The position numbers were made by a program, and so were the translations under genes. 45,901 nt of DNA from Escherichia phage vB_EcoS_Zar3M, in sequence record NC_073065.1; one strand, 5' to 3'. Shown here in pieces: positions 2,875 to 43,196 of the stretch. How positions within the stretch are numbered: position 1 is the stretch's first letter; each line of letters opens with the position of its first letter. Under the pieces are notes generated by a model. The model was not told the origin of the DNA. It made no database searches and saw only the letters and a program-made list of their open reading frames with translations.

Positions 2875-3288
2875 ATGTTAAAAAGTATTCTTGATCATAA
2901 CGCCGACGCGCTCGCCGCGCTGGCTAAAACCGAAGACCCAGGCGCACGCGCTATTGTAGCGGATACGATCAGCCATGCGGGGGTATTCGACGCGAAGCTG
3001 CCTAGCCCGCCGGAAAGTNANCCGGTGACAAGCGCCACCGTAACCATCACACCGGAATCCGCCGCAGTTGGTGCGAAGGCCACCGCTTCGGTTGAGGTCC
3101 AGCCACCCGACGCGACTAACAAGGCCGGGAAGTGGGTGTCGTCGAATCCCGCCTGCGCGGCAATCGATCAGACTACCGGCGAAATCACAGCCCAAACGGC
3201 GGGTAGCGCCCACATCTTTTGGGTGGCCTCAGATGGTAGCGGGGCGATGGCGTCCGCCATCTTCACCGTAACGGGGGCGGAAGAATAA
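2875..3288 (+). CDS. bacterial Ig-like (Big_2-type) domain protein
   Basis: Ser/Thr/Ala-rich beta-type sequence ...VTITPESAAVGAKATASVEVQPPDATNKAGKWVSSNPACAAIDQTTGEITAQTAGSAHIF... resembling Big_2 domains; no TM or lipobox. Confidence 0.45.
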   Translation: MLKSILDHNADALAALAKTEDPGARAIVADTISHAGVFDAKLPSPPESXPVTSATVTITPESAAVGAKATASVEVQPPDATNKAGKWVSSNPACAAIDQTTGEITAQTAGSAHIFWVASDGSGAMASAIFTVTGAEE

Positions 3289-3384
3289 ATCTACCACCGC
3301 GGTTAATTCCGGGCTTTTTATTGCTTGACTTGCAACCAACATAGAGGCCATACTGCGACCAATCAACGAGAGGAGTAGTAAACT

Positions 3385-3465
3385 ATGGCACGTAATGATA
3401 TTTGGGTTTTGGCGATCTGGACCACCGCAGCATTCATTGGCATGGTTATTTGCGAATTGCTATAA
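3385..3465 (+). CDS. small hydrophobic peptide (26 aa) upstream of phosphoesterase
   Basis: Unlisted ORF MARNDIWVLAIWTTAAFIGMVICELL with strong GAGGAG RBS; followed by GGGACCG...CGGTCCC hairpin (3479-3506). Confidence 0.3.
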   Translation: MARNDIWVLAIWTTAAFIGMVICELL

Positions 3466-3526
3466 CCCGCCACAATAGGGACCGTGGTATATTGTCCTCG
3501 GTCCCATAATCAGGAAGTGGATTAAT

Positions 3527-4669
3527 ATGCACCCGCAAACTAAAATCACCGACGAGCAATTGATCGCCGAGTTGCAATCCGGCNCNNCCNCGAAANANAT
3601 TGCGAANAANTANGGTNTTTCCCNCCNAAATGTCTACATGCNAAAANCCCNCCTGTCGAANAAAGGTNTTGGTCNCGGNAANGANGCCGTAANCCGNAAG
3701 CGNGTTGCNGNNGGNTTNGGNGTTAAGNGTGTCNCCNCCCTGGNGNGNGGAAANGGNGAAGAGGTCATGTNGNGGGTTATCACTGAGCAGGACAAGGAGC
3801 GCCAGCTTGAGGCAATGCGCGCCGTTGTCGAGGGTATGAACAGCGAAATCAAACCGGCAGCACCCGTAAGCGCCCCGCCGGTCCCGATCCATGCGCTCGA
3901 CCTACTCAACCTGTACACCGTGTCCGACTTCCACCTGGGCATGTTGGCCTGGGGCGAGGAGACTGGCGAAGACTGGGATATGGCGATTGCCGAAGACCTG
4001 TTCTACCGCTGGTTTGTCGAAGCCTTCGCACGCGCACCGGACGCAGGCACTGCCGTAATTAATATCCTCGGTGATATGGCCCACTTTGATAGCCTCGATG
4101 CCGTCACTCCCGCCAGCGGTCACGTACTGGACGCGGATACCCGCTACCAGAAACTGGTCCGATACATGATTCGCATGGTGCGCAACGTGGTAGACCTGGC
4201 GCTGCAGAAACACCACAAAGTCAAACTGCTAATCGTCCAGGGGAATCATGACGAGTCGGGCATGATTTGGCTGGCTGAAATGTTCCATACTCTGTACGAG
4301 AACGAGCCACGCGTCGATGTGGATACGTCCCCGGACGTATACAAAATGGTGCAGCACGGCAAGACCACGCTGTTCTTCCACCACGGGCACAAAGCGCGCT
4401 TCGATGCCATCGAAACCGTCATGATTTCAAAATTCAGACAGGCTTTCGGGTCCAGCGAGTACAGCTACGCGCATGTAGGCCACTTGCACCACCAGAAGAT
4501 TGTAGAATCCCGCAACATGATTGTTGAACAACACCGGACCCTCGCAGCGAAAGACGCATATGCCAGCCGCGGCGGTTGGATGTCCGGTCGTAGTGCCAAC
4601 GTAATCACCTATAGCGCCAACTACGGCGAAGTAGCGCGCCTGACCATTAGCCCGGAAATGTTGAAATGA
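3527..4669 (+). CDS. metallophosphoesterase (calcineurin-like) with N-terminal HTH-like extension
   Basis: Calcineurin-type motif series DFHLG, GDMAH, QGNHDE, HHGH, GHLHH; N-terminal ~60 aa (ITDEQLIAELQSG...) looks like a helix-turn-helix; n-masked patch 3586-3775. Confidence 0.7.
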   Translation: MHPQTKITDEQLIAELQSGXXXKXIAXXXGXSXXNVYMXKXXLSXKGXGXXXXAVXXKXVXXXXXVKXVXXLXXGXXEEVMXXVITEQDKERQLEAMRAVVEGMNSEIKPAAPVSAPPVPIHALDLLNLYTVSDFHLGMLAWGEETGEDWDMAIAEDLFYRWFVEAFARAPDAGTAVINILGDMAHFDSLDAVTPASGHVLDADTRYQKLVRYMIRMVRNVVDLALQKHHKVKLLIVQGNHDESGMIWLAEMFHTLYENEPRVDVDTSPDVYKMVQHGKTTLFFHHGHKARFDAIETVMISKFRQAFGSSEYSYAHVGHLHHQKIVESRNMIVEQHRTLAAKDAYASRGGWMSGRSANVITYSANYGEVARLTISPEMLK

Positions 4670-4923
4670 TTAGACAAGTATTCATGAGCACGCAGGCGGA
4701 CCGCCTGAAGGAACTACGCAAACAACTGGAAGGATTGCGCCGATTCGAACGAACGGCAGCGGCAATCGGCATGTCTATCAGCGAGCGGATCGAGATACTA
4801 TCGCAAATACGCTACACAGAAGGCGCTATACGCGAAGTAGAAAGCATGTTAACCGATACTACGGTCGCGCCGTTTAACCCTCCTAGCCCGCCGATTTGGT
4901 GGGCTTTTTTGTGCCTGTTATAA
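4666..4923 (+). CDS. hypothetical protein (85 aa)
   Basis: ORF starting by ATGA overlap with phosphoesterase stop; alternative start at internal Met (MSTQADRL...); predicted helical. Confidence 0.4.
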   Translation: MIRQVFMSTQADRLKELRKQLEGLRRFERTAAAIGMSISERIEILSQIRYTEGAIREVESMLTDTTVAPFNPPSPPIWWAFLCLL

Positions 4924-4993
4924 TCCCCTTAGATGGCAGGGCCGTCTCCTATGTTGCCGATGGTCGGCGCATATGCACAAAAGGGCTTATATC

Positions 4994-5545
4994 ATGGCAG
5001 AAATCAAAGTTAAGGGCCGTCGCGCTAAACTGGACGGACGAGTAGCAGTTACCCCGCGCCGTAAACCAGGCGAGCAAACAGAACATACCAATCTCGGGCC
5101 GGAGATCGAATACGGCAAGCGCCGCAGAGGTGGCAAATGTGGACGCCCTACCGACTACCGTTCCGTGTATTGTGACCAACTTCGACGCTATTTCGCCGAT
5201 GCCGTAGCCTGGCAAGTTAACTACTCCGACAAGGGTGCTGCGCAAGTAATTCCCCGCAACATGATGCCTACCTTTGGTCGCTTCGCCGCAAAGATTGGCG
5301 TAGGCGTCGCATGCCTTTATCGCTGGGCGCGCGCACATGAGGAGTTCGCCGAGGCAATGGCTGACGCTATGGAGCTACAGAAAACCTTCCTGATGGAAGC
5401 TGGCGGCGTGACCATCGCGGCGGGCTTCGCTACCTTCCTGCTTAAAGCCAACCACGGCGTCCGGGACGATGTACCGCTGGATGACGACGAAGATGATAAC
5501 GGCGACGTCGTTGTGGAACCTACCGGCAAAGGTCAGGGTGATTAA
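4994..5545 (+). CDS. terminase small subunit (putative)
   Basis: Directly upstream of and overlapping terminase large subunit (TAATG); basic N-terminus, HTH-like segment RFAAKIGVGVACLYRWARAHEEF, acidic C-terminal tail. Confidence 0.55.
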   Translation: MAEIKVKGRRAKLDGRVAVTPRRKPGEQTEHTNLGPEIEYGKRRRGGKCGRPTDYRSVYCDQLRRYFADAVAWQVNYSDKGAAQVIPRNMMPTFGRFAAKIGVGVACLYRWARAHEEFAEAMADAMELQKTFLMEAGGVTIAAGFATFLLKANHGVRDDVPLDDDEDDNGDVVVEPTGKGQGD

Positions 5546-6930
5546 TGCGTAACTATGCGGCAGAACATCGCGCCCTTGAACGAGCGATCGCAAAGCGAAA
5601 CAGACCGCCGCGCCCGACACGCGTTGCGCAGGCCGTCCGCCTTTACCAGCCTGATTGCCTTCCGCACCAGGTGGAACTACTGCGCGACACGAAGACTAAA
5701 ATCATCGGCCTGTGTTCCGGCTTCGGTGGCGGTAAGTCATGGGTCGCGGCGAGAAAGGTCATCCAGCTTTTAACACTAAACCCCGGTCATGATGGCATCG
5801 TAACAGAACCGACTATTCCCCTCCTGGTTAAAATCATGTACCCGGAATTGGAAAAGGCATTCGACGAGGCGGGCTTCAGGNGGAAGTTTAACAAGCAGGA
5901 CAAGATTTATAGCGTGCTGGTGAAAGGCAAGTGGACGCGCGTAATCTGTGAGTCAATGGAAAACTACACCCGCCTAATCGGGGTCAACGCCGCGNGGNTT
6001 GTTGCCGATGAGTTNGATACCACNAAACAAGACGTCGCAATGGNGGCTTACCACAAATTGCTTGGTNGTCTGNGTGCTGGNTTGGTGCGCCAGTTCGTCA
6101 TCGTGTCCACGCCTGAAGGCTTCCGGGCGATGTATCAGATTTTCGAAGTGGAGAAGGATAGCCAAAAACGTTTGATCCGGGCGAAGACTACCGATAATCA
6201 CCACTTACCGGCAGACTTTATCGACACTCTGCGCAGCCAGTACCCTGCTAACCTGATTGATGCGTACCTGAACGGTATGTTTGTCAACCTTACGTCGGGC
6301 GCGGTATACAAGATGTTCAATCGTGAGGAGAACGCCAGCACCGAAGAAGTGCAGCCGGAAGACACGCTGATTATCGGGATGGACTTTAACGTCACGAAAA
6401 TGGCGGCGGTCGTGTACGTCAGACGGCAGCGCATCACCGAAAACAAGGAGTTCCGCGACGAGATTCACGCAGTGGATGAATTCGTGGACCTGTTCGATAC
6501 CCCGGCTATGATTGAGGCGATCGAGGAGCGCTACCCCGATCATTGTGCTGCCGGTCGGGTCGTCGTTTACCCGGATAGCAGTGGCAAGTCTCGTAAGACT
6601 GTTAACGCATCGTCGTCCGATATAGCGCAACTGGAAGACGCAGGCTTCGAGGTGGAATACGACAGCGTTAACCCACCTGTGAAAGACCGATTGATCGCGA
6701 TGAATACGATGATGTGCAACTCGAAGGGCGTGCGCCAGTATTTTGTCAACCTGGATAAATGCCCTACACTAGCGAAATGTCTGGAACAGCAGGTTTACGA
6801 CCTGAAGAAAGGCGAGCCGGATAAAACCGCCGGTGTGGACCACATGAACGATGCCGCGGGTTATCCAATTGCGCACCTGTTCCCAGTGATTCGTCCGATC
6901 GCCGTTGTTCCAACTGTAGACTTCTACTAA
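5545..6930 (+). CDS. terminase large subunit
   Basis: Walker A GFGGGKS, Walker B-like VADE, C-terminal nuclease-type region; position between small subunit and portal. Confidence 0.85.
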   Translation: MRNYAAEHRALERAIAKRNRPPRPTRVAQAVRLYQPDCLPHQVELLRDTKTKIIGLCSGFGGGKSWVAARKVIQLLTLNPGHDGIVTEPTIPLLVKIMYPELEKAFDEAGFRXKFNKQDKIYSVLVKGKWTRVICESMENYTRLIGVNAAXXVADEXDTXKQDVAMXAYHKLLGXLXAXLVRQFVIVSTPEGFRAMYQIFEVEKDSQKRLIRAKTTDNHHLPADFIDTLRSQYPANLIDAYLNGMFVNLTSGAVYKMFNREENASTEEVQPEDTLIIGMDFNVTKMAAVVYVRRQRITENKEFRDEIHAVDEFVDLFDTPAMIEAIEERYPDHCAAGRVVVYPDSSGKSRKTVNASSSDIAQLEDAGFEVEYDSVNPPVKDRLIAMNTMMCNSKGVRQYFVNLDKCPTLAKCLEQQVYDLKKGEPDKTAGVDHMNDAAGYPIAHLFPVIRPIAVVPTVDFY

Positions 6931-16099: not shown

Positions 16100-16129
16100 T
16101 TTGGTCGCTTAAGTAGCGAGTGATAATAT

Positions 16130-16154
16130 GGGGCCAGCACGGCCCCTTTTTATT
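16130..16154 (+). terminator. intrinsic terminator after major tail gene
   Basis: GGGGCC-AGCAC-GGCCCC followed by TTTTTATT. Confidence 0.6.
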
Positions 16155-17218: not shown

Positions 17219-19861
17219 ATGGCAGATCAAGCGGCAGGCATCACGCTGAAGGCTGATGTTGCACAAATCAGAACGGCAAATACTGTGCTGGACTCCTTCG
17301 CACAGAAATCCGAGAACACAGAAAACAAGGTTAAGAAATTAAACGACACCCTCGGCAAATCCAAAAAGGTGACGAGTGACGCCGCGGGCGGAATGGAGAA
17401 GCTCGCGACTGAATCGCAGCGCGCAGCCGATGGNANGACAAAACAGGNGCGNCTTGCCAACAGGTTAGGCATGTCGACCAAAAACCTGGGCTTTGCCTCG
17501 CGTAACGCCGCATTCCAGTTACAGGATATCGCAGTTACGCTTGAGATGGGGATGCCTGTTCACCGCGTCATGCTTCAGCAGTTACCGCAGCTAACTGGGG
17601 CGTTCGGCGGACTGGGTAACACGCTGCGTTTTGTTGCGGGCTTCCTCGGCCCAGTAGGGGTCGGCCTTGCCGCCGTAACGGCAACGTTAGGCGTGGGCGT
17701 GGCAATTACGTCCCGCGCGGAGAACCAGATCGCCNCGCTTAACAAGACGCTGGCACTTTCCGGTAACATTTCCGGCCTGACGGCAAACCAGATCCTGGTG
17801 CTATCTGAGAACGCCGNGCGCNNGGGNGGGNNGTTCCGCAANANGNGNGACACAANCCNGGCGNNGGNGGNGGNGGGTGTGAAAGNGGGNGGNGACTTCG
17901 GCGCACTGGNGAAAGTGGTGAATGACTTTGCGAAGGTGTCCAGCCAGCCGATCGAGGATGTGGTCGCGGCGGTGGCGAAGCTGTCAACCGACCCGGTAGG
18001 CGGCTTGCGAGCATTGGCTGATAAGTATCACGTCGTAAACGAAGCGCAGATCCAGCAGGTGCAGTCGCTTGTGGATATGGGTCGCGAGACAGACGCGGTT
18101 GCGTTGGCTAACAAAACCGCCGCAGCGTCGTTTACGACTATGACCAACGATATTAAGTCCAACATGGGTACGCTTGAGCGTTCGATGAACGTAGTCACAT
18201 CGGCAGCGAAATCCATGTGGGATGCCATCCTGGATGTTGGACGCGCGCAGTCCTCGAATGAGTCCGAGATGAAAGCGCGTGAGTCATTGCAGCGACTGAC
18301 CACGGCTTACTATGCCGAGATGAAAGCGGTAAACGCTGCCGGTGGGGTGATGACCGAAGCGCAGAAAGCGCGTATTAACATGCTTTACAGCGAACTGGTC
18401 GCCCAGGAGAAGGTGGTGGCGTCGCTCACCCTGCGCAACCGTGCCGAGCGGGACAACNCCCGCCCCNGGGAANAAGNNNNAAAGGNGAANGAANAGGCAA
18501 ACCNCACCGCCCGCNNCCNCGCCGCGTTTGNGAAGGAGTACGCAACCAACGCGAAGCGGCGAGCCGACGAGATCGCCCGCCTCAATTTGCTGAATAAGCG
18601 CGGTGTTATTAACGAGAAAGAGCTTGCCGAGGCGGTGAAGCAGGTAAACGAGCGTTACAAAGACCCCGCCCCGAAGAAGGCCGCCGCTGTTCGAGTCGAT
18701 GCCGGGCTGAAAATGCTGGAAGTCGCGCGAAGCGAATTAGCCCAGCTTCGTGAGTCTGGAAAGCAGATCGAAGCCAACTCTTCGACGCAGACCCGCACGC
18801 AACGCGCGCAAGCGGCCCTTAACAAGCTGATTGCCGACAACGAGCAGTTAATCGCTGCGAGCAAAGAAAGGGCGCTGACGGCAGCAGAGAAGCAGCAAAT
18901 GGTCGGGTTCGGAGGCGTTAAATCTGTACGCGAGCAGATCGTCGAAGAAGCCAAATTGCTGGACGCGAAAGAGAAGCAGGTCAAGGCGCACGCGCAGATC
19001 GACGCCTTCGTTAAGAACCAGAACGCCGAGCTAAAAGCCACCGCGGCGGGCTATGCGCTTTCCACTCGCGAAGCGGCTAACCTGCGCGAAGAATTGCAGC
19101 TAATTGACCGCCTTAAGCGGGTGGGCGCTAGTGATACCGATATTGATCTGGCGGTGTCTAAGCTGCGCGAAGTGCAGGAAGCACAGACCGGTGCTAACGC
19201 CTCGCTATGGGATGGATTAAGCCGCGGGCTTAAGGATAGCGTTGATGAAATGGGTAACGGCTATACGCAGATGGCGTCACTAACAAAATTCACGTTCGGC
19301 GCTATGCAGGACACGATGAACGAGTTTTTCGAGACTGGCAAGCTGAACGCAAAGGATATGGTTAAGTCCATCCTGAGCGAATTAATCAAGCTGGCTACAT
19401 CGCAGGCGTTCAAGTCCATCGTTAGCGCTTTNGGNGGNGNNGGNGGAAAAAANGGNTTNTTNGGNGNTNTNTTNNCCNGCCNGACTAANAANGNGGNNGG
19501 NGGNGNGNNCGNNGGGGGNAATCTCGCGGCCTNTTNGGGGNAAGTGGTAAGCCNNCCTNCCTTTTTNNGTTNCGGNGTCCNGGNGTTCGCTAAGGGTGCT
19601 GGATTGATGGGGGAGGCTGGACCCGAGGCCATCATGCCGCTGAAGCGCGGGCCAGACGGTAAACTGGGAGTTGCCGCTGCCGGTGGGGTCGGTGGGATGA
19701 TTGTAACGACCAACGTTAATATGGGTACCGGTAAGACGGATACCAGTGTGAGCGGACCGGACCCACGCACCGCGCAGGCGTTCGGAAAGCAAATCACCGA
19801 GTCGGTCAAGGCCGAGATTGTGAAGGCGACGAAACCGGGTGGTGTACTTTACAAACNATGA
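17219..19861 (+). CDS. tape measure protein
   Basis: 880-aa helical Ala/Gln/Lys-rich protein with Gly-rich hydrophobic C-terminal region; downstream of G/GT. Confidence 0.85.
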   Translation: MADQAAGITLKADVAQIRTANTVLDSFAQKSENTENKVKKLNDTLGKSKKVTSDAAGGMEKLATESQRAADXXTKQXXLANRLGMSTKNLGFASRNAAFQLQDIAVTLEMGMPVHRVMLQQLPQLTGAFGGLGNTLRFVAGFLGPVGVGLAAVTATLGVGVAITSRAENQIAXLNKTLALSGNISGLTANQILVLSENAXRXXGXFRXXXDTXXAXXXXGVKXXXDFGALXKVVNDFAKVSSQPIEDVVAAVAKLSTDPVGGLRALADKYHVVNEAQIQQVQSLVDMGRETDAVALANKTAAASFTTMTNDIKSNMGTLERSMNVVTSAAKSMWDAILDVGRAQSSNESEMKARESLQRLTTAYYAEMKAVNAAGGVMTEAQKARINMLYSELVAQEKVVASLTLRNRAERDNXRPXEXXXKXXEXANXTARXXAAFXKEYATNAKRRADEIARLNLLNKRGVINEKELAEAVKQVNERYKDPAPKKAAAVRVDAGLKMLEVARSELAQLRESGKQIEANSSTQTRTQRAQAALNKLIADNEQLIAASKERALTAAEKQQMVGFGGVKSVREQIVEEAKLLDAKEKQVKAHAQIDAFVKNQNAELKATAAGYALSTREAANLREELQLIDRLKRVGASDTDIDLAVSKLREVQEAQTGANASLWDGLSRGLKDSVDEMGNGYTQMASLTKFTFGAMQDTMNEFFETGKLNAKDMVKSILSELIKLATSQAFKSIVSAXXXXXGKXXXXXXXXXXXTXXXXXXXXXGXNLAAXXGXVVSXPXFXXXXVXXFAKGAGLMGEAGPEAIMPLKRGPDGKLGVAAAGGVGGMIVTTNVNMGTGKTDTSVSGPDPRTAQAFGKQITESVKAEIVKATKPGGVLYKX

Positions 19862-19865
19862 TAAA

Positions 19866-19896
19866 ATGGCCCTCACTACAACGTGGGGGCTTTTTT
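19866..19896 (+). terminator. terminator-like hairpin between tape measure and tail tip genes
   Basis: GGCCC-N12-GGGGC stem followed by TTTTTT, immediately before ATG at 19897. Confidence 0.4.
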
Positions 19897-20496
19897 ATGT
19901 CACAAGGCACAATCACTCTAACGAACGGAAGTAAGACCGTCACGGGCGCGGGAACGGCGTTCCTGAGCGAGATCGGGAAGGTCCGCGTATTTACCCGCAT
20001 CGACGGCAACGACTACACCGGAAAAATTGCGGCATTCAACTCTGACACTGTCATCACCCTGGCTGATAACTGGGCAGGCCCGACAAAAGCCGGTGCGGCT
20101 TATGAGCTAATCNAAGCGCACNACCCNCGGNNAAGCGAANGGCCTTATTNCTGGCANATGCAATTGCAAGGCGGNGGAGACGTGCAGTTGGCTTTCCGGN
20201 CCGNGGAATTGCAATTTGGTAATGGTTACGGTCANAACATCGCTGACGGCCCGAACGCCGAAACGAAACAGTTCCCCGTGCAATTCATCGGACTGACTAC
20301 TGACAAGTGGTGCGACCCTAAACTGGTTTACAACTTCCTTCGCGGGCACTTCGTCAAGCCGTTTGTCGTCACCGCGCCGGATGGCGAAACAGGTTTATTC
20401 GTGGTCGAGCGTTCGAGCTTGTCGTACACAGACAACGGGCATAACACGGCAACGGTGTCCGCCACCCTTAAGACTGCTATTGGATTCGTAAGATGA
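19897..20496 (+). CDS. minor tail protein (gpM-like position) with fibre-like N-terminal domain
   Basis: First gene after tape measure; N-terminus MSQGTITLTNGSKTVTGAGTAF resembles the N-terminus of tail fibre 27312..29135 (MAAGTLSVTNNSKAVVGVGTTF). Confidence 0.5.
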   Translation: MSQGTITLTNGSKTVTGAGTAFLSEIGKVRVFTRIDGNDYTGKIAAFNSDTVITLADNWAGPTKAGAAYELIXAHXXRXSEXPYXWXMQLQGXGDVQLAFRXXELQFGNGYGXNIADGPNAETKQFPVQFIGLTTDKWCDPKLVYNFLRGHFVKPFVVTAPDGETGLFVVERSSLSYTDNGHNTATVSATLKTAIGFVR

Positions 20497-39906: not shown

Positions 39907-41329
39907 TGCTTAAGTCCTCGTCAGTAGCTACAGACCACGCAGGGCGCGGGTCGTCGATGGGTGCTAATACCGGTTTAGCGGGTGCGCGCGTGATTTTATC
40001 ACACAACTTTGCCCACACTTTCGGCTTCTCGTCCTTCAATACCTTCTCGGCATCAGTAGGGCTGAGTAATGTTTCTTTGTACATCACGTCGCGCTTGATC
40101 CGGGCCTTCGTGAAGATCTCAATCACTTCGCTCTCGTCCGCCCACTTGCGGATTCCTTCCTTACCGGCAACCATCTTGAGGCCCAGCGATTCNCCATCAC
40201 CCNCCATTACGGCCTTNAACNCCGCGGNCNCGANAGCCTTGNTNTGNTGGCGCNTTGNGNCAANACCTTCANAANCCTTNCGCNGTTCCNCCNCNCCCAN
40301 NGCNCNGGGGGGGNCTTTTTTTTTNCCCCNCTCCCCNCGNGGNNCCCCTTTGGGGGNTNNGGGGGCCATNTTGNGGNCGTGATTGGCGCATTCTTCCTCT
40401 GTCGAAATACTCACGTCGTCGCCCAGGTCTTCGTCTGTTGCCGTTGGTGGGGCCATAGTGTCGATTGCAGCCTTAGCGCGGGCGCTACACTGATCCGCAA
40501 ATCTGCACCATTGACACGCATCAACGCTCGGTCGGAAGTCGGCACGGGTGAGTCCCTTTTTGCCGCGGTCGTACGCTTCCAGGGCGGCGATAGCACGCTT
40601 GGACGCAAACTTCGCGAATATCTCCAGGGCTTCTACCGAAATATCCCACTCCGACGCCCCGCCGCAATACGGCTGGAAGATAACCAGGCGCACGGTCGTA
40701 ATGTCGTACATAGTTTTCAGCTTGCGCAGCAGGCCCAGCGCATACAACATAAGCTGTTTGTTTTCTTTCGCCTCGACCTTATGCCGCCCCGTCTTCAGGT
40801 CGCCAACAATCAGCATGTACGTGCCGTCGGTCTTCTTCATGACCATGACCATATCCGCAGTGCCGAACGTCTTAACCCGGTTGCCGTCGATCTCGAAGCC
40901 AGAGTGTAGGACGCGGGTAAGATCGGCGCGCATCTCAAGCTGAACAAACTCCGCCACTTCGAGGAGCGGTCGCCAGTGGTCGATGTATGCGTCGCACTGT
41001 TTCACCATGTCGTCGTTGACCAGCACGCCGCCTTTCGGTGCTTTCGGGTGCGCCTTCACCGGCCCCTTACCTTCGTTCTCGACGTAACACCCTTTGTACG
41101 TCTTCGCGGTTATCAGCTTTTCACCGGCGATAATGCGGTTGAGCACGACTTCAGATACAGTGTGCATACTCGTACCGTTAATCGCCGCTTGCCCGGATTC
41201 GTTCGGGATACCTTGTTCTACCACCAGGGCGGCTGGGCAACCCATCCATTTTTTAGCACCGGATGGGCCGAGTAATGAATGCTCCGTGTTGCTACCGGAT
41301 TGCGTTTTACGTTTTGGTTTAATCGCCAT
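39899..41329 (-). CDS. DUF2800-type PD-(D/E)XK nuclease (Cas4-like, Cys cluster)
   Basis: N-terminal LLGPSGAKKWMGCPAA and C-terminal CQWCRFADQC Cys cluster, as in Cas4/RecB-like phage exonucleases. Confidence 0.65.
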   Translation of the reverse strand: MAIKPKRKTQSGSNTEHSLLGPSGAKKWMGCPAALVVEQGIPNESGQAAINGTSMHTVSEVVLNRIIAGEKLITAKTYKGCYVENEGKGPVKAHPKAPKGGVLVNDDMVKQCDAYIDHWRPLLEVAEFVQLEMRADLTRVLHSGFEIDGNRVKTFGTADMVMVMKKTDGTYMLIVGDLKTGRHKVEAKENKQLMLYALGLLRKLKTMYDITTVRLVIFQPYCGGASEWDISVEALEIFAKFASKRAIAALEAYDRGKKGLTRADFRPSVDACQWCRFADQCSARAKAAIDTMAPPTATDEDLGDDVSISTEEECANHXXXMAPXXPKGXXXGEXXKKKXPPXXXXXXEXXKXXEGXXXXRXXXKAXXXAXXKAVMXGDXESLGLKMVAGKEGIRKWADESEVIEIFTKARIKRDVMYKETLLSPTDAEKVLKDEKPKVWAKLCDKITRAPAKPVLAPIDDPRPAWSVATDEDLSNE

Positions 41330-42866: not shown

Positions 42867-43196
42867 ATGAATATCAAAGAAGCAATTGAAGTGTTATCTA
42901 ATGCAATCCGCGGCGAAGCGGGTAAATCCTGGTATTACACAAATGCGGTGGATACTCTGTTATTTGAAGTCGTCCGATTACGCAGTGCTGAGAAGGAGTT
43001 ACGCGCGAAGCTGGAACTACTCAATGGTACGGCAGCCAGCAAGCTGCAAAAGCANAATGAAGAAATGGAAGAATACAAAAAGCAGGTTATCCGTTTGCGC
43101 GACGAAGGGAAATCATGGGCGATGATTGCAGAGCTAACCGGAATTAATCAGAGCACCGTGCGATCCTGGGTACGCAATAATAAAACCTCTAAGTAA
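42867..43196 (+). CDS. helix-turn-helix DNA-binding regulator (109 aa)
   Basis: C-terminal HTH-like GKSWAMIAELTGINQSTVRSWVRNN; N-terminal coiled-coil-like region; first gene of + operon. Confidence 0.5.
   Translation: MNIKEAIEVLSNAIRGEAGKSWYYTNAVDTLLFEVVRLRSAEKELRAKLELLNGTAASKLQKXNEEMEEYKKQVIRLRDEGKSWAMIAELTGINQSTVRSWVRNNKTSK

Follow-up and report, generated by a model that had tools for sequence, protein, structure and literature searches.

The genes by which phages T1 and TLS degrade host DNA have been reported as unidentified (PMC11447400); T1 mutants impaired in this degradation have a raised transduction frequency (Roberts and Drexler 1981, cited in PMC11447400). A functional precedent for such an activity comes from mycobacteriophage A10ZJ24, for which the abstract of one report describes Gp48, a metallophosphoesterase (MPE)-like protein, as disrupting host genomic DNA, with a proposed action early in infection (PMC12287305). 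Here we analyse the 45,901-nucleotide (nt) genome of Escherichia phage vB_EcoS_Zar3M (NC_073065.1), referred to throughout as the window, and in particular a gene for a 380-amino-acid (aa) protein that joins an N-terminal helix-turn-helix (HTH) to an MPE domain, together with the short segment that precedes it. The protein is a full-length ortholog of T1 gp16 (ST16; 45% identity, E = 2e-109), of the same length and the same HTH-linker-MPE layout, and both genes are bracketed by terminators and have a small hydrophobic open reading frame (ORF) before them. They differ in that the T1 gene follows Dam, precedes HNH, holin and endolysin genes and is translationally coupled to upstream ORFs, whereas the window gene lies after the lysis genes and before the terminase genes and has a probable promoter of its own. 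A preliminary description of this segment had proposed that a leader peptide and a hairpin attenuate the phosphoesterase gene, and that the enzyme may act on DNA ends or in packaging-associated signalling. All the elements that it listed are found where it placed them, and its reading of them holds in part. On the account that we lean towards, the interval is instead the boundary of the lysis and packaging modules, occupied by two separate units and not by one regulatory device.

The window is a Dhillonvirus genome (the HK578-type Escherichia coli siphoviruses), with 97% DNA identity to phage L-h 1M and a gene order collinear with that of PTXU06. The interval 3300-4950 was matched in 157 phage records, nearly all of them Dhillonvirus. 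The coordinates, conservation, coding signature, motifs, fold, orthology and gene contexts given below were computed; L numbers are our labels for the loci compared. The features of the interval are as follows.

3297-3320, plus strand: remnant of the intrinsic terminator of the lysis module, crippled here (from folding and comparison with relatives)
3325-3354, plus strand: P1, a sigma-70-type promoter-like site (TTGACT at 3325-3330, 18-nt spacer, CATACT at 3349-3354)
3385-3465, plus strand: gene for a 26-aa single-pass hydrophobic micropeptide (from its coding signature and the Shine-Dalgarno sequence GAGAGGAG at 3368-3375)
3478-3505, plus strand: imperfect inverted repeat or RNA hairpin (10-nt arms at 3478-3487 and 3496-3505, 90% complementary, 8-nt loop)
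3485-3493, plus strand: P2, an extended -10 promoter-like motif, TGGTATATT, in the hairpin loop, with a predicted start near 3500
3527-4669, plus strand: gene for the 380-aa HTH-MPE protein (Shine-Dalgarno sequence AGGAAG at 3512-3517)
4666-4923, plus strand: small ORF overlapping the MPE stop codon (ATGA), matching PHROG 20931 at 1e-41 over residues 1-63
4885-4911, plus strand: strong intrinsic terminator (-15.1 kcal/mol, z = -3.4, then TTTTTT) that closes the two-gene MPE unit
4916-4924, plus strand: consensus extended -10 element, TGTTATAAT, found as a sequence match between that terminator and terS

Judged by its AlphaFold2 model (mean pLDDT 90.4), the 380-aa protein is an HTH-MPE fusion with a predicted fold nearest to those of DNA nucleases, and by its sequence it belongs to an already catalogued yet uncharacterised family, PHROG 704 / T1 gp16. 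The HTH occupies residues ~9-45, its helices (9-17, 22-29 and 33-45) being modelled at pLDDT 93-95, and is followed by a flexible link, a beta-hairpin plus helix (64-107) and the MPE domain (~123-380). When the superfamily motif set was checked (DxH, GD, GNH[DE], H and GHxH), all five motifs were found, as D134-x-H136, G182-D183, G-N240-H241-D242, H285/H286 and G318-H319-x-H321. Among 58 diverse homologs D134, H136, G182, D183, N240, H241, H286, G287, G318 and H321 are invariant and D242, H285 and H319 nearly so; W83 and T194 are invariant besides the MPE motifs. The PHROG 704 profile ('DNA repair exonuclease') aligns at 6e-145 over residues 5-380 of 380. The preliminary description of this gene product as an HTH-phosphoesterase is upheld. 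Labels given to members of the family in sequence records are inconsistent, and include 'DNA repair exonuclease', 'transcriptional regulator', 'wHTH protein' and 'oxidoreductase'.

The model has a beta-sandwich phosphoesterase fold, and the nearest folds are those of archaeal PolD DP1, Mre11 and SbcD, that is, the nuclease branch. The likeness to these enzymes is structural only: identity is 13-17% and the similarity of the family profile is not significant. PolD DP1 carries an OB fold where the window protein has its N-terminal HTH, and the conserved loops TPxSGHxLDADxR and EQHxTLAAxDAYASRGG are specific to its family; nuclease activity is a prediction from the model. Searches of PDB sequences with the protein and with the profile of the 58 homologs gave marginal matches only, to designed repeat proteins, to GerE (1fse, E = 0.03) and to SbcD (E = 0.54). 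HTH families are matched by many members of the family, namely Sigma70_r4_2 (nine members, best 1.5e-9), HTH_1 (ten members) and GerE (2.4e-8). The HTH of the window protein is itself partly masked, as 40 N bases within 3584-3773 leave residues 20-83 partly undefined; the close homolog P0001 alone gives no Pfam HTH match. A clean protein sequence was therefore taken from the orthologs in PTXU06 and PNS1, which are 97% identical to each other. The N bases in the phosphoesterase gene fall on positions that are invariant in relatives as well as on variable ones.

The family is large, with 4674 clusters at 50% identity (E <= 1e-3), of which the 150 best representatives are mostly 370-420 aa long. 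It was found in 2059 of 50,697 phage records (~4%), from phages of Escherichia, Klebsiella, Salmonella, Vibrio, Campylobacter and Rhodobacter among other hosts. No characterised member was found in the literature, no characterised phage protein was among the named matches in BFVD, and NCBIfam and PADLOC returned nothing meaningful, with no defence-system match. Mentions of the phosphoesterase in the Dhillonvirus and Drexlerviridae literature that we searched were limited to annotation, and no Dhillonvirus transcript data were found there. Gp48 of A10ZJ24 resembles the window protein in being a phage MPE proposed to act on host DNA; an HTH is not mentioned in the abstract that describes it (PMC12287305), and we liken the two at the superfamily level only. 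Mycobacterium lies outside the ten commonest host genera in tblastn matches of the HTH-MPE family.

The position of the gene directly upstream of terS and terL, to which the preliminary description drew attention, holds in Dhillonvirus and is confined to it. Elsewhere, in T1-like, Jersey-like, lambdoid-like and T7-like phages, the orthologs stand among DNA-metabolism or lysis genes. T1-like loci have the same neighbours as T1 itself. In Jersey-like phages the ortholog lies between an Imm_superinfect gene and a gene for a HAD_PNKP phosphatase, after which comes a P-loop protein that is dNMP kinase-like by its N-terminal sequence, with no match in Pfam. The ortholog adjoins a polynucleotide kinase gene in Jedunavirus, Erwinia phage S2, Ec_L1 and AAS23, and a HAD_PNKP or polynucleotide kinase gene is directly downstream in several unrelated lineages (L094-L096, L099 and L017), Jedunavirus having one on both sides; in AAS23 the kinase-linked phosphoesterase locus is followed by a dNMP kinase gene (PMC8004638). 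The Erwinia phage S2 ortholog comes after genes for a 5'-3' exonuclease and endonuclease VII, that of a lambdoid-like contig ends a replication-gene cluster just before the antiterminator Q gene, and at one further locus the ortholog follows a RecE-like gene (DUF3799) and an AAA_24 gene. Dam, Dcm and VRR-NUC genes, besides RecE-like and AAA_24 ones, are found near orthologs outside Dhillonvirus. The theme shared by these contexts is DNA and nucleotide metabolism, not packaging.

Since the modelled HTH-MPE fold is nearest to DNA nucleases, it is reasonable to suppose that the protein acts on DNA, and to this extent the preliminary description stands. Its suggestion of a packaging role, in the position that cos/Nu1 has in lambda, fares less well: a terminator stands between the gene and terS, the terminase appears to be of the headful type, and the adjacency is not conserved. 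A possible role in the breakdown of host DNA for nucleotide salvage is what we infer from the nuclease-like fold, the linkage to polynucleotide kinase and to a probable dNMP kinase, the mycobacteriophage precedent (PMC12287305) and the missing genes of T1 and TLS (PMC11447400). The HTH-phosphoesterases are a very large, unstudied family with repeated linkage to such kinase genes, and offer a testable candidate for host-DNA degradation of the T1 type.

Upstream of this gene lies a 26-codon ORF, which the preliminary description took for a strongly translated leader. Its product, MARNDIWVLAIWTTAAFIGMVICELL, is a micropeptide for which no family was detectable in Pfam and PHROG searches. Exactly 26 codons are present in 22 of 23 Dhillonvirus copies, and over these 23 copies the ratio of nonsynonymous to synonymous polymorphism (pN/pS) is 0.20 in frame compared with 0.76 and 4.5 off-frame, the variable sites being distributed 7/2/10 over codon positions 1/2/3. 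Its strong Shine-Dalgarno sequence is 9 nt before the ATG at 3385, and no other hydrophobic ORF of 18-40 aa with a Shine-Dalgarno sequence occurs on the plus strand of the 45.9-kb window. We conclude that the micropeptide gene is a real coding gene under purifying selection; from these sequence features it is very likely translated, as had been proposed. Annotations of Dhillonvirus genomes frequently leave it out, or place an ORF on the wrong strand instead. One such call, a minus-strand 'hypothetical protein' of 60-66 aa over the equivalent of ~3290-3475 in CEC_Kaz_2018, PC2 and JL1 (L073, L080 and L081), was considered and rejected: its frame is split in two in the window, the coding signature belongs to the plus-strand ORF, and the call is probably an annotation artefact.

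Of the 157 phage records with the region, 107 contain the micropeptide ORF segment and 50 lack it. It is likewise missing from 12 of 23 unselected IMG/VR and metagenome loci, and where it is missing the phosphoesterase gene stays intact. P1 and the ORF behave as a single indel between conserved neighbours, as is seen for morons, and in L006, L008 and L015 both are gone, the lysis-module terminator being joined directly to sequence just before the hairpin. The exceptions are L010 and L107, with P1 only, and L083, with the ORF only; L009 and L014 have a different ORF in the slot. Because close relatives lose the cassette and yet keep the downstream gene intact, the micropeptide is not an obligatory leader.

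P1 itself corresponds to the promoter-like TTGACT box of the preliminary description, with the motif TGCAACCAAC directly after it at 3331-3340, and is conserved in the cassette-bearing Dhillonviruses. Its consensus score is 9/12; three such sites occur in the 2.8 kb scanned against 2.0 expected, so that the match alone is not significant. The TGCAACCAAC motif has no meaningful recurrence elsewhere in the window. We read P1 as the putative promoter of the micropeptide gene.

The cassette resembles phage morons and the T4 Imm superinfection-immunity family in pairing a promoter with a small membrane-protein gene between conserved genes, with variable presence, and Jersey-like relatives carry an Imm_superinfect gene in the very slot that the micropeptide has in the window. 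It differs in that the peptide is only 26 aa long with no detectable family, and in having no cassette terminator of its own unless the hairpin serves: after the ORF this hairpin, which has no U-tract and which correlates with an upstream ORF, is the only possible one.

The hairpin was the second element of the proposed attenuator, and its stability is confirmed (-17.9 kcal/mol, z = -3.9 against shuffles). Leader-peptide attenuators of the trp/his type likewise have a short translated ORF and then a stable hairpin upstream of a gene, and here the hairpin begins 13 nt past the micropeptide stop, within a gap of 61 nt between the two genes. In contrast to those attenuators, the stem is followed by AUAAUCAGGAAG and not by a U-tract, and a plus-strand terminator scan finds no terminator here; there is no antiterminator, as no competing helix was found and shuffled sequences fold as well as the 186-nt leader region does (z = -0.65); and the micropeptide ORF has no run of regulatory codons. 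The hairpin ends 6 nt before the Shine-Dalgarno sequence of the phosphoesterase gene, so that the ribosome-binding site is left free, the leader is dispensable (the cassette is in only about two thirds of records), and the loop is the most conserved part. An Rfam scan of 3200-5100 (E <= 1) gave a single sub-threshold sRNA match, on the other strand, at the downstream terminator. The full proposal, in which translation of the leader governs the hairpin and so attenuates a phosphoesterase that acts at DNA ends in packaging, can also draw on the place of the gene next to the terminase genes in Dhillonvirus and on the detection of the AAS23 homolog in a virion preparation (see below). A terminator and a consensus extended -10 motif nevertheless precede terS, and that adjacency is unconserved outside Dhillonvirus. 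Given these features together with those of the hairpin, we regard the proposal as highly improbable.

What is conserved is the loop. TG[G/A]TATATTG stands in every one of the 41 Dhillonvirus sequences compared, including seven that have no stem, and the sole variable base of the motif is the unconstrained n of the TGnTATAAT consensus; TGGTATATT matches eight of nine extended -10 consensus positions (seven of the eight specified). Genomes without the cassette have no -10-like element other than the loop motif between a strong terminator and the ATG. Several Jersey/Kaguna-like relatives have a similar TGGTTAAAT ~30 nt before the ATG, which is the same distance as for P2. On account of the invariant loop, its position as sole -10-like element in cassette-less genomes, the TGGTTAAAT of relatives and the TGTTATAAT before terS, 3485-3493 reads as an extended -10 promoter, P2, rather than as an attenuator. 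As P2 lies in the loop of the palindrome and its predicted start within the 3' arm, transcripts from P2 would lack the hairpin. The possibility of a recurring phage promoter or operator motif was also considered and rejected, as GTGGTATATTGT, TTGACTTGCAACCAAC and the palindrome recur in the window no more than chance.

The stem behaves differently from the loop. Across 24 distinct relatives 80.8% of stem cells are paired, stem changes are mostly uncompensated, and stem energies span -19.5 to -2.8 kcal/mol, or -19.5 to -3.2 kcal/mol in the set of 41 Dhillonvirus sequences. Covariation is weak (five cells in three pairs) and slightly above shuffles, of which 5 in 500 reach the observed score. 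All 34 sequences in which an ORF or P1 immediately precedes the hairpin retain the stem (-7 to -19.5 kcal/mol), and the seven relatives in which the lysis terminator adjoins it have all lost the stem (-6.2 kcal/mol or weaker). This distribution, the stable fold and the slight covariation speak for a function of the hairpin in RNA transcribed from further upstream. There it would insulate or mark the 3' end of the message for the micropeptide or another preceding ORF, whether as stabiliser, pause site or weak terminator, and such a role would be compatible with P2. On the other side, a U-tract is lacking and 10 bp are too few for RNase III to act on; G.U cells do not exceed A.C cells (9 against 16), so that no strand asymmetry and no bias towards pairing of the plus-strand RNA is seen; and in several genomes that carry an ORF the stem is weak, at -7 to -11 kcal/mol. 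About three independent lineages underlie the association of stem and upstream ORF, which may have arisen as alleles recombined about the invariant loop, L163 having one arm of each type. We therefore treat an RNA-level function as a tentative possibility, rather less probable than its opposite.

The palindrome could alternatively be an operator to which the HTH of the phosphoesterase binds, so repressing its own promoter. The inverted repeat has the -10-like motif at its centre and occurs nowhere else in the genome, relatives in other genera carry different short inverted repeats over the predicted start site, and SO-1 gp58 and AV129 are annotated as transcriptional regulators. However, genomes with a perfect palindrome and genomes with both arms broken encode the same recognition helix in the HTH (RNVYMRKARLSKKG), and changes in the arms are neither symmetric nor compensated. 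An operator of this kind would seem very unlikely from the sequences compared.

The account that we favour, with little more than even confidence in it as a whole, has P1 driving the micropeptide gene and P2 driving an insulated unit of MPE gene and small ORF, whose enzyme holds DNA by its HTH and cuts or trims it at a binuclear centre. The first unit would be an optional moron-like cassette consisting of P1, a strong ribosome-binding site and the 26-codon membrane micropeptide gene. The second would be a two-gene operon for the MPE and a protein of ~65-85 aa, with intrinsic terminators on either side (~3297-3320, intact in relatives, and 4885-4911), and most likely driven by its own extended -10 promoter, with starts at ~3500; the hairpin would then be carried only by read-through or P1 transcripts. 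The enzyme would belong to the nuclease branch, as a binuclear phosphoesterase of the Mn/Fe type that its N-terminal HTH keeps on DNA, and would serve DNA metabolism by processing or degrading DNA, possibly host DNA for nucleotide salvage, rather than act as a packaging factor.

Several observations weigh against this account. P2 has no recognisable -35 element and its motif does not recur elsewhere in the genome, and the tracking of the stem with an upstream ORF hints at an RNA-level role that the promoter reading leaves unexplained. In Pfam the window protein scores below the cut-offs for Metallophos (22.3 bits, cut-off 27) and Metallophos_2 (19.4, cut-off 21.5), matches that are consistent with the assignment all the same; 16 of the 58 family members match Metallophos at E < 0.01. 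No Rad50/SbcC- or SMC-like partner was found among nine large window ORFs scanned, which include a DNA polymerase A, a PD-(D/E)XK nuclease (DUF2800), an SNF2 helicase, an AAA_25 primase-helicase and a tail-fibre chaperone domain protein, four of the nine having no Pfam match. The AAS23 homolog, gp38 (L099, 498-1622), has been detected by mass spectrometry in a virion preparation (PMC8004638), a finding easier to reconcile with a protein associated with the virion than with one confined to metabolism. Finally, transcription-start, translation or enzyme data were not found in the literature for any member of the family.

At the left border of the second unit, PTXU06 has an annotated terminator at the counterpart of 3297-3320, with a folding energy of -15 kcal/mol (z = -3.7), and most relatives keep the element as AGCCCGG..CCGGGCTTTTT. 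The window version has 5'-arm substitutions (AAGCCCGG to CACCGCGG) that leave -5.8 kcal/mol (z = -0.1); this is either a real read-through variant or a consensus error in an N-rich assembly. At the right border the 4885-4911 terminator precedes terS, and TGTTATAAT ahead of terS suggests, as a sequence match, that the packaging genes have a start of their own. For the window itself, then, neither the attenuator nor the packaging link is supported, and the architecture is that of ordinary phage modules. The PHROG 20931 ORF encodes 64-70 aa in relatives; in the window it reads through the terminator hairpin to 85 aa.

A small ORF before the phosphoesterase gene is also found outside Dhillonvirus. 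In T1 (L093, NC_005833) a 23-aa hydrophobic ORF, MKLYFAVVLTPLISFSVMYFIIM, lies at 40740-40811, unannotated in the RefSeq record; it has an ATGA overlap with the stop codon of ST17, and 10 nt separate its end from the ATG of gene 16. Among 80 IMG/VR Drexlerviridae loci (L169-L248) that we used as a T1-like sample, 74 (~93%) have a hydrophobic ATG-initiated ORF of 22-29 aa ending 1-18 nt before the ortholog, and of the six exceptions one is a pseudogene, one a threshold miss and one a mis-set start. TLS has an HNH-type insert in the peptide slot and Rogunavirus e4/1c has no peptide. The pN/pS of the T1-type micropeptides is 0.36-0.48 in frame compared with 0.6-1.7 off-frame, and such small hydrophobic ORFs are rare by chance, with 6 on the plus strand of the window and 17 on that of T1. 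In 28 of 46 Jersey-like loci the slot holds an Imm_superinfect membrane protein of 59-68 aa. A small membrane-protein gene directly before the phosphoesterase is thus a recurring pattern, which could reflect a functional pair or a favoured site for accessory insertions. Annotating the T1-like micropeptide gene would be a small correction to many phage records, and a possible entry to the function of phage micropeptides.

Micropeptide and enzyme might form a functional pair conserved across T1-like phages and Dhillonvirus, with the peptide serving to anchor the enzyme, to regulate it or to oppose it, or with the two coupled in translation. The frequency in Drexlerviridae, the in-frame constraint, the chance rarity and the Imm_superinfect genes of the Jersey-like loci all speak for such a pair. 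The enzyme is nevertheless intact where the peptide is missing, that is, in one third to one half of Dhillonviruses, in Rogunavirus e4/1c, in TLS and in many other lineages, so that the pairing holds for only half to two thirds of Dhillonviruses. That the slot is filled by unrelated membrane proteins in different lineages fits an insertion hot-spot for accessory genes, and the two Dhillonvirus genes have 61 nt and a probable promoter between them. We claim no homology of the Dhillonvirus and T1-type micropeptides, as a length of 23-29 hydrophobic residues precludes showing it. The frequent absence of the peptide disfavours a strict requirement for it, and we consider a functional pair unlikely. 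A broader proposal would make the ~25-aa micropeptide and the HTH-phosphoesterase a conserved two-gene module of small virulent siphoviruses of enterobacteria, with the T1 gp16 family as the nuclease of T1-type host-chromosome degradation and nucleotide reuse and with the micropeptide controlling or complementing it; this we consider more doubtful still.

The lysis and packaging genes on either side of the interval are as follows.

1848-2380: two holins
2367-2858: endolysin
2875-3288: gp57-like protein fused to a Big_2 domain
4973-5545, plus strand: terminase small subunit TerS (PHROG 3064 at 1.5e-71, as evidence of the terminase context)
5545-6930, plus strand: terminase large subunit TerL (Pfam Terminase_6N and Terminase_6C), with the portal gene next

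The terminase looks like a headful type from weak matches of TerS to P22 gp3 and Sf6 TerS and from a T4-type TerL. Strong intrinsic terminators are also present at 1807-1846, 16121-16150 and 19859-19897 (-20 to -23 kcal/mol), with TGATAnAnT, which has the look of an extended -10 element, directly before each. A general design in which terminators and promoters overlap was considered and rejected, since the TGATAnAnT at 1807, 16121 and 19859 may simply be terminator A-tracts; the relaxed TGATAnAnT-type pattern is not enriched either (33 seen, ~45 estimated by chance) and is not used as evidence.

The window contains 577 scattered single N bases, in the cluster at 3584-3773 and about 50 others, and these resemble masked or low-quality base calls more than they do polymorphism in a population. 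A 109-aa ORF with which the rightward gene arm begins (42867-43196) matches PHROG 9366, a family labelled 'transposase', at 7e-59; the label looks doubtful for a virulent siphovirus. In the 2875-3288 gene, the ~48-aa N-terminus of a short gp57 protein (PHROG 11068) is joined to a Big_2 Ig-like domain; the gp57 protein is 55 aa long in most Dhillonviruses, and the fused form is labelled 'major tail protein' in some records.

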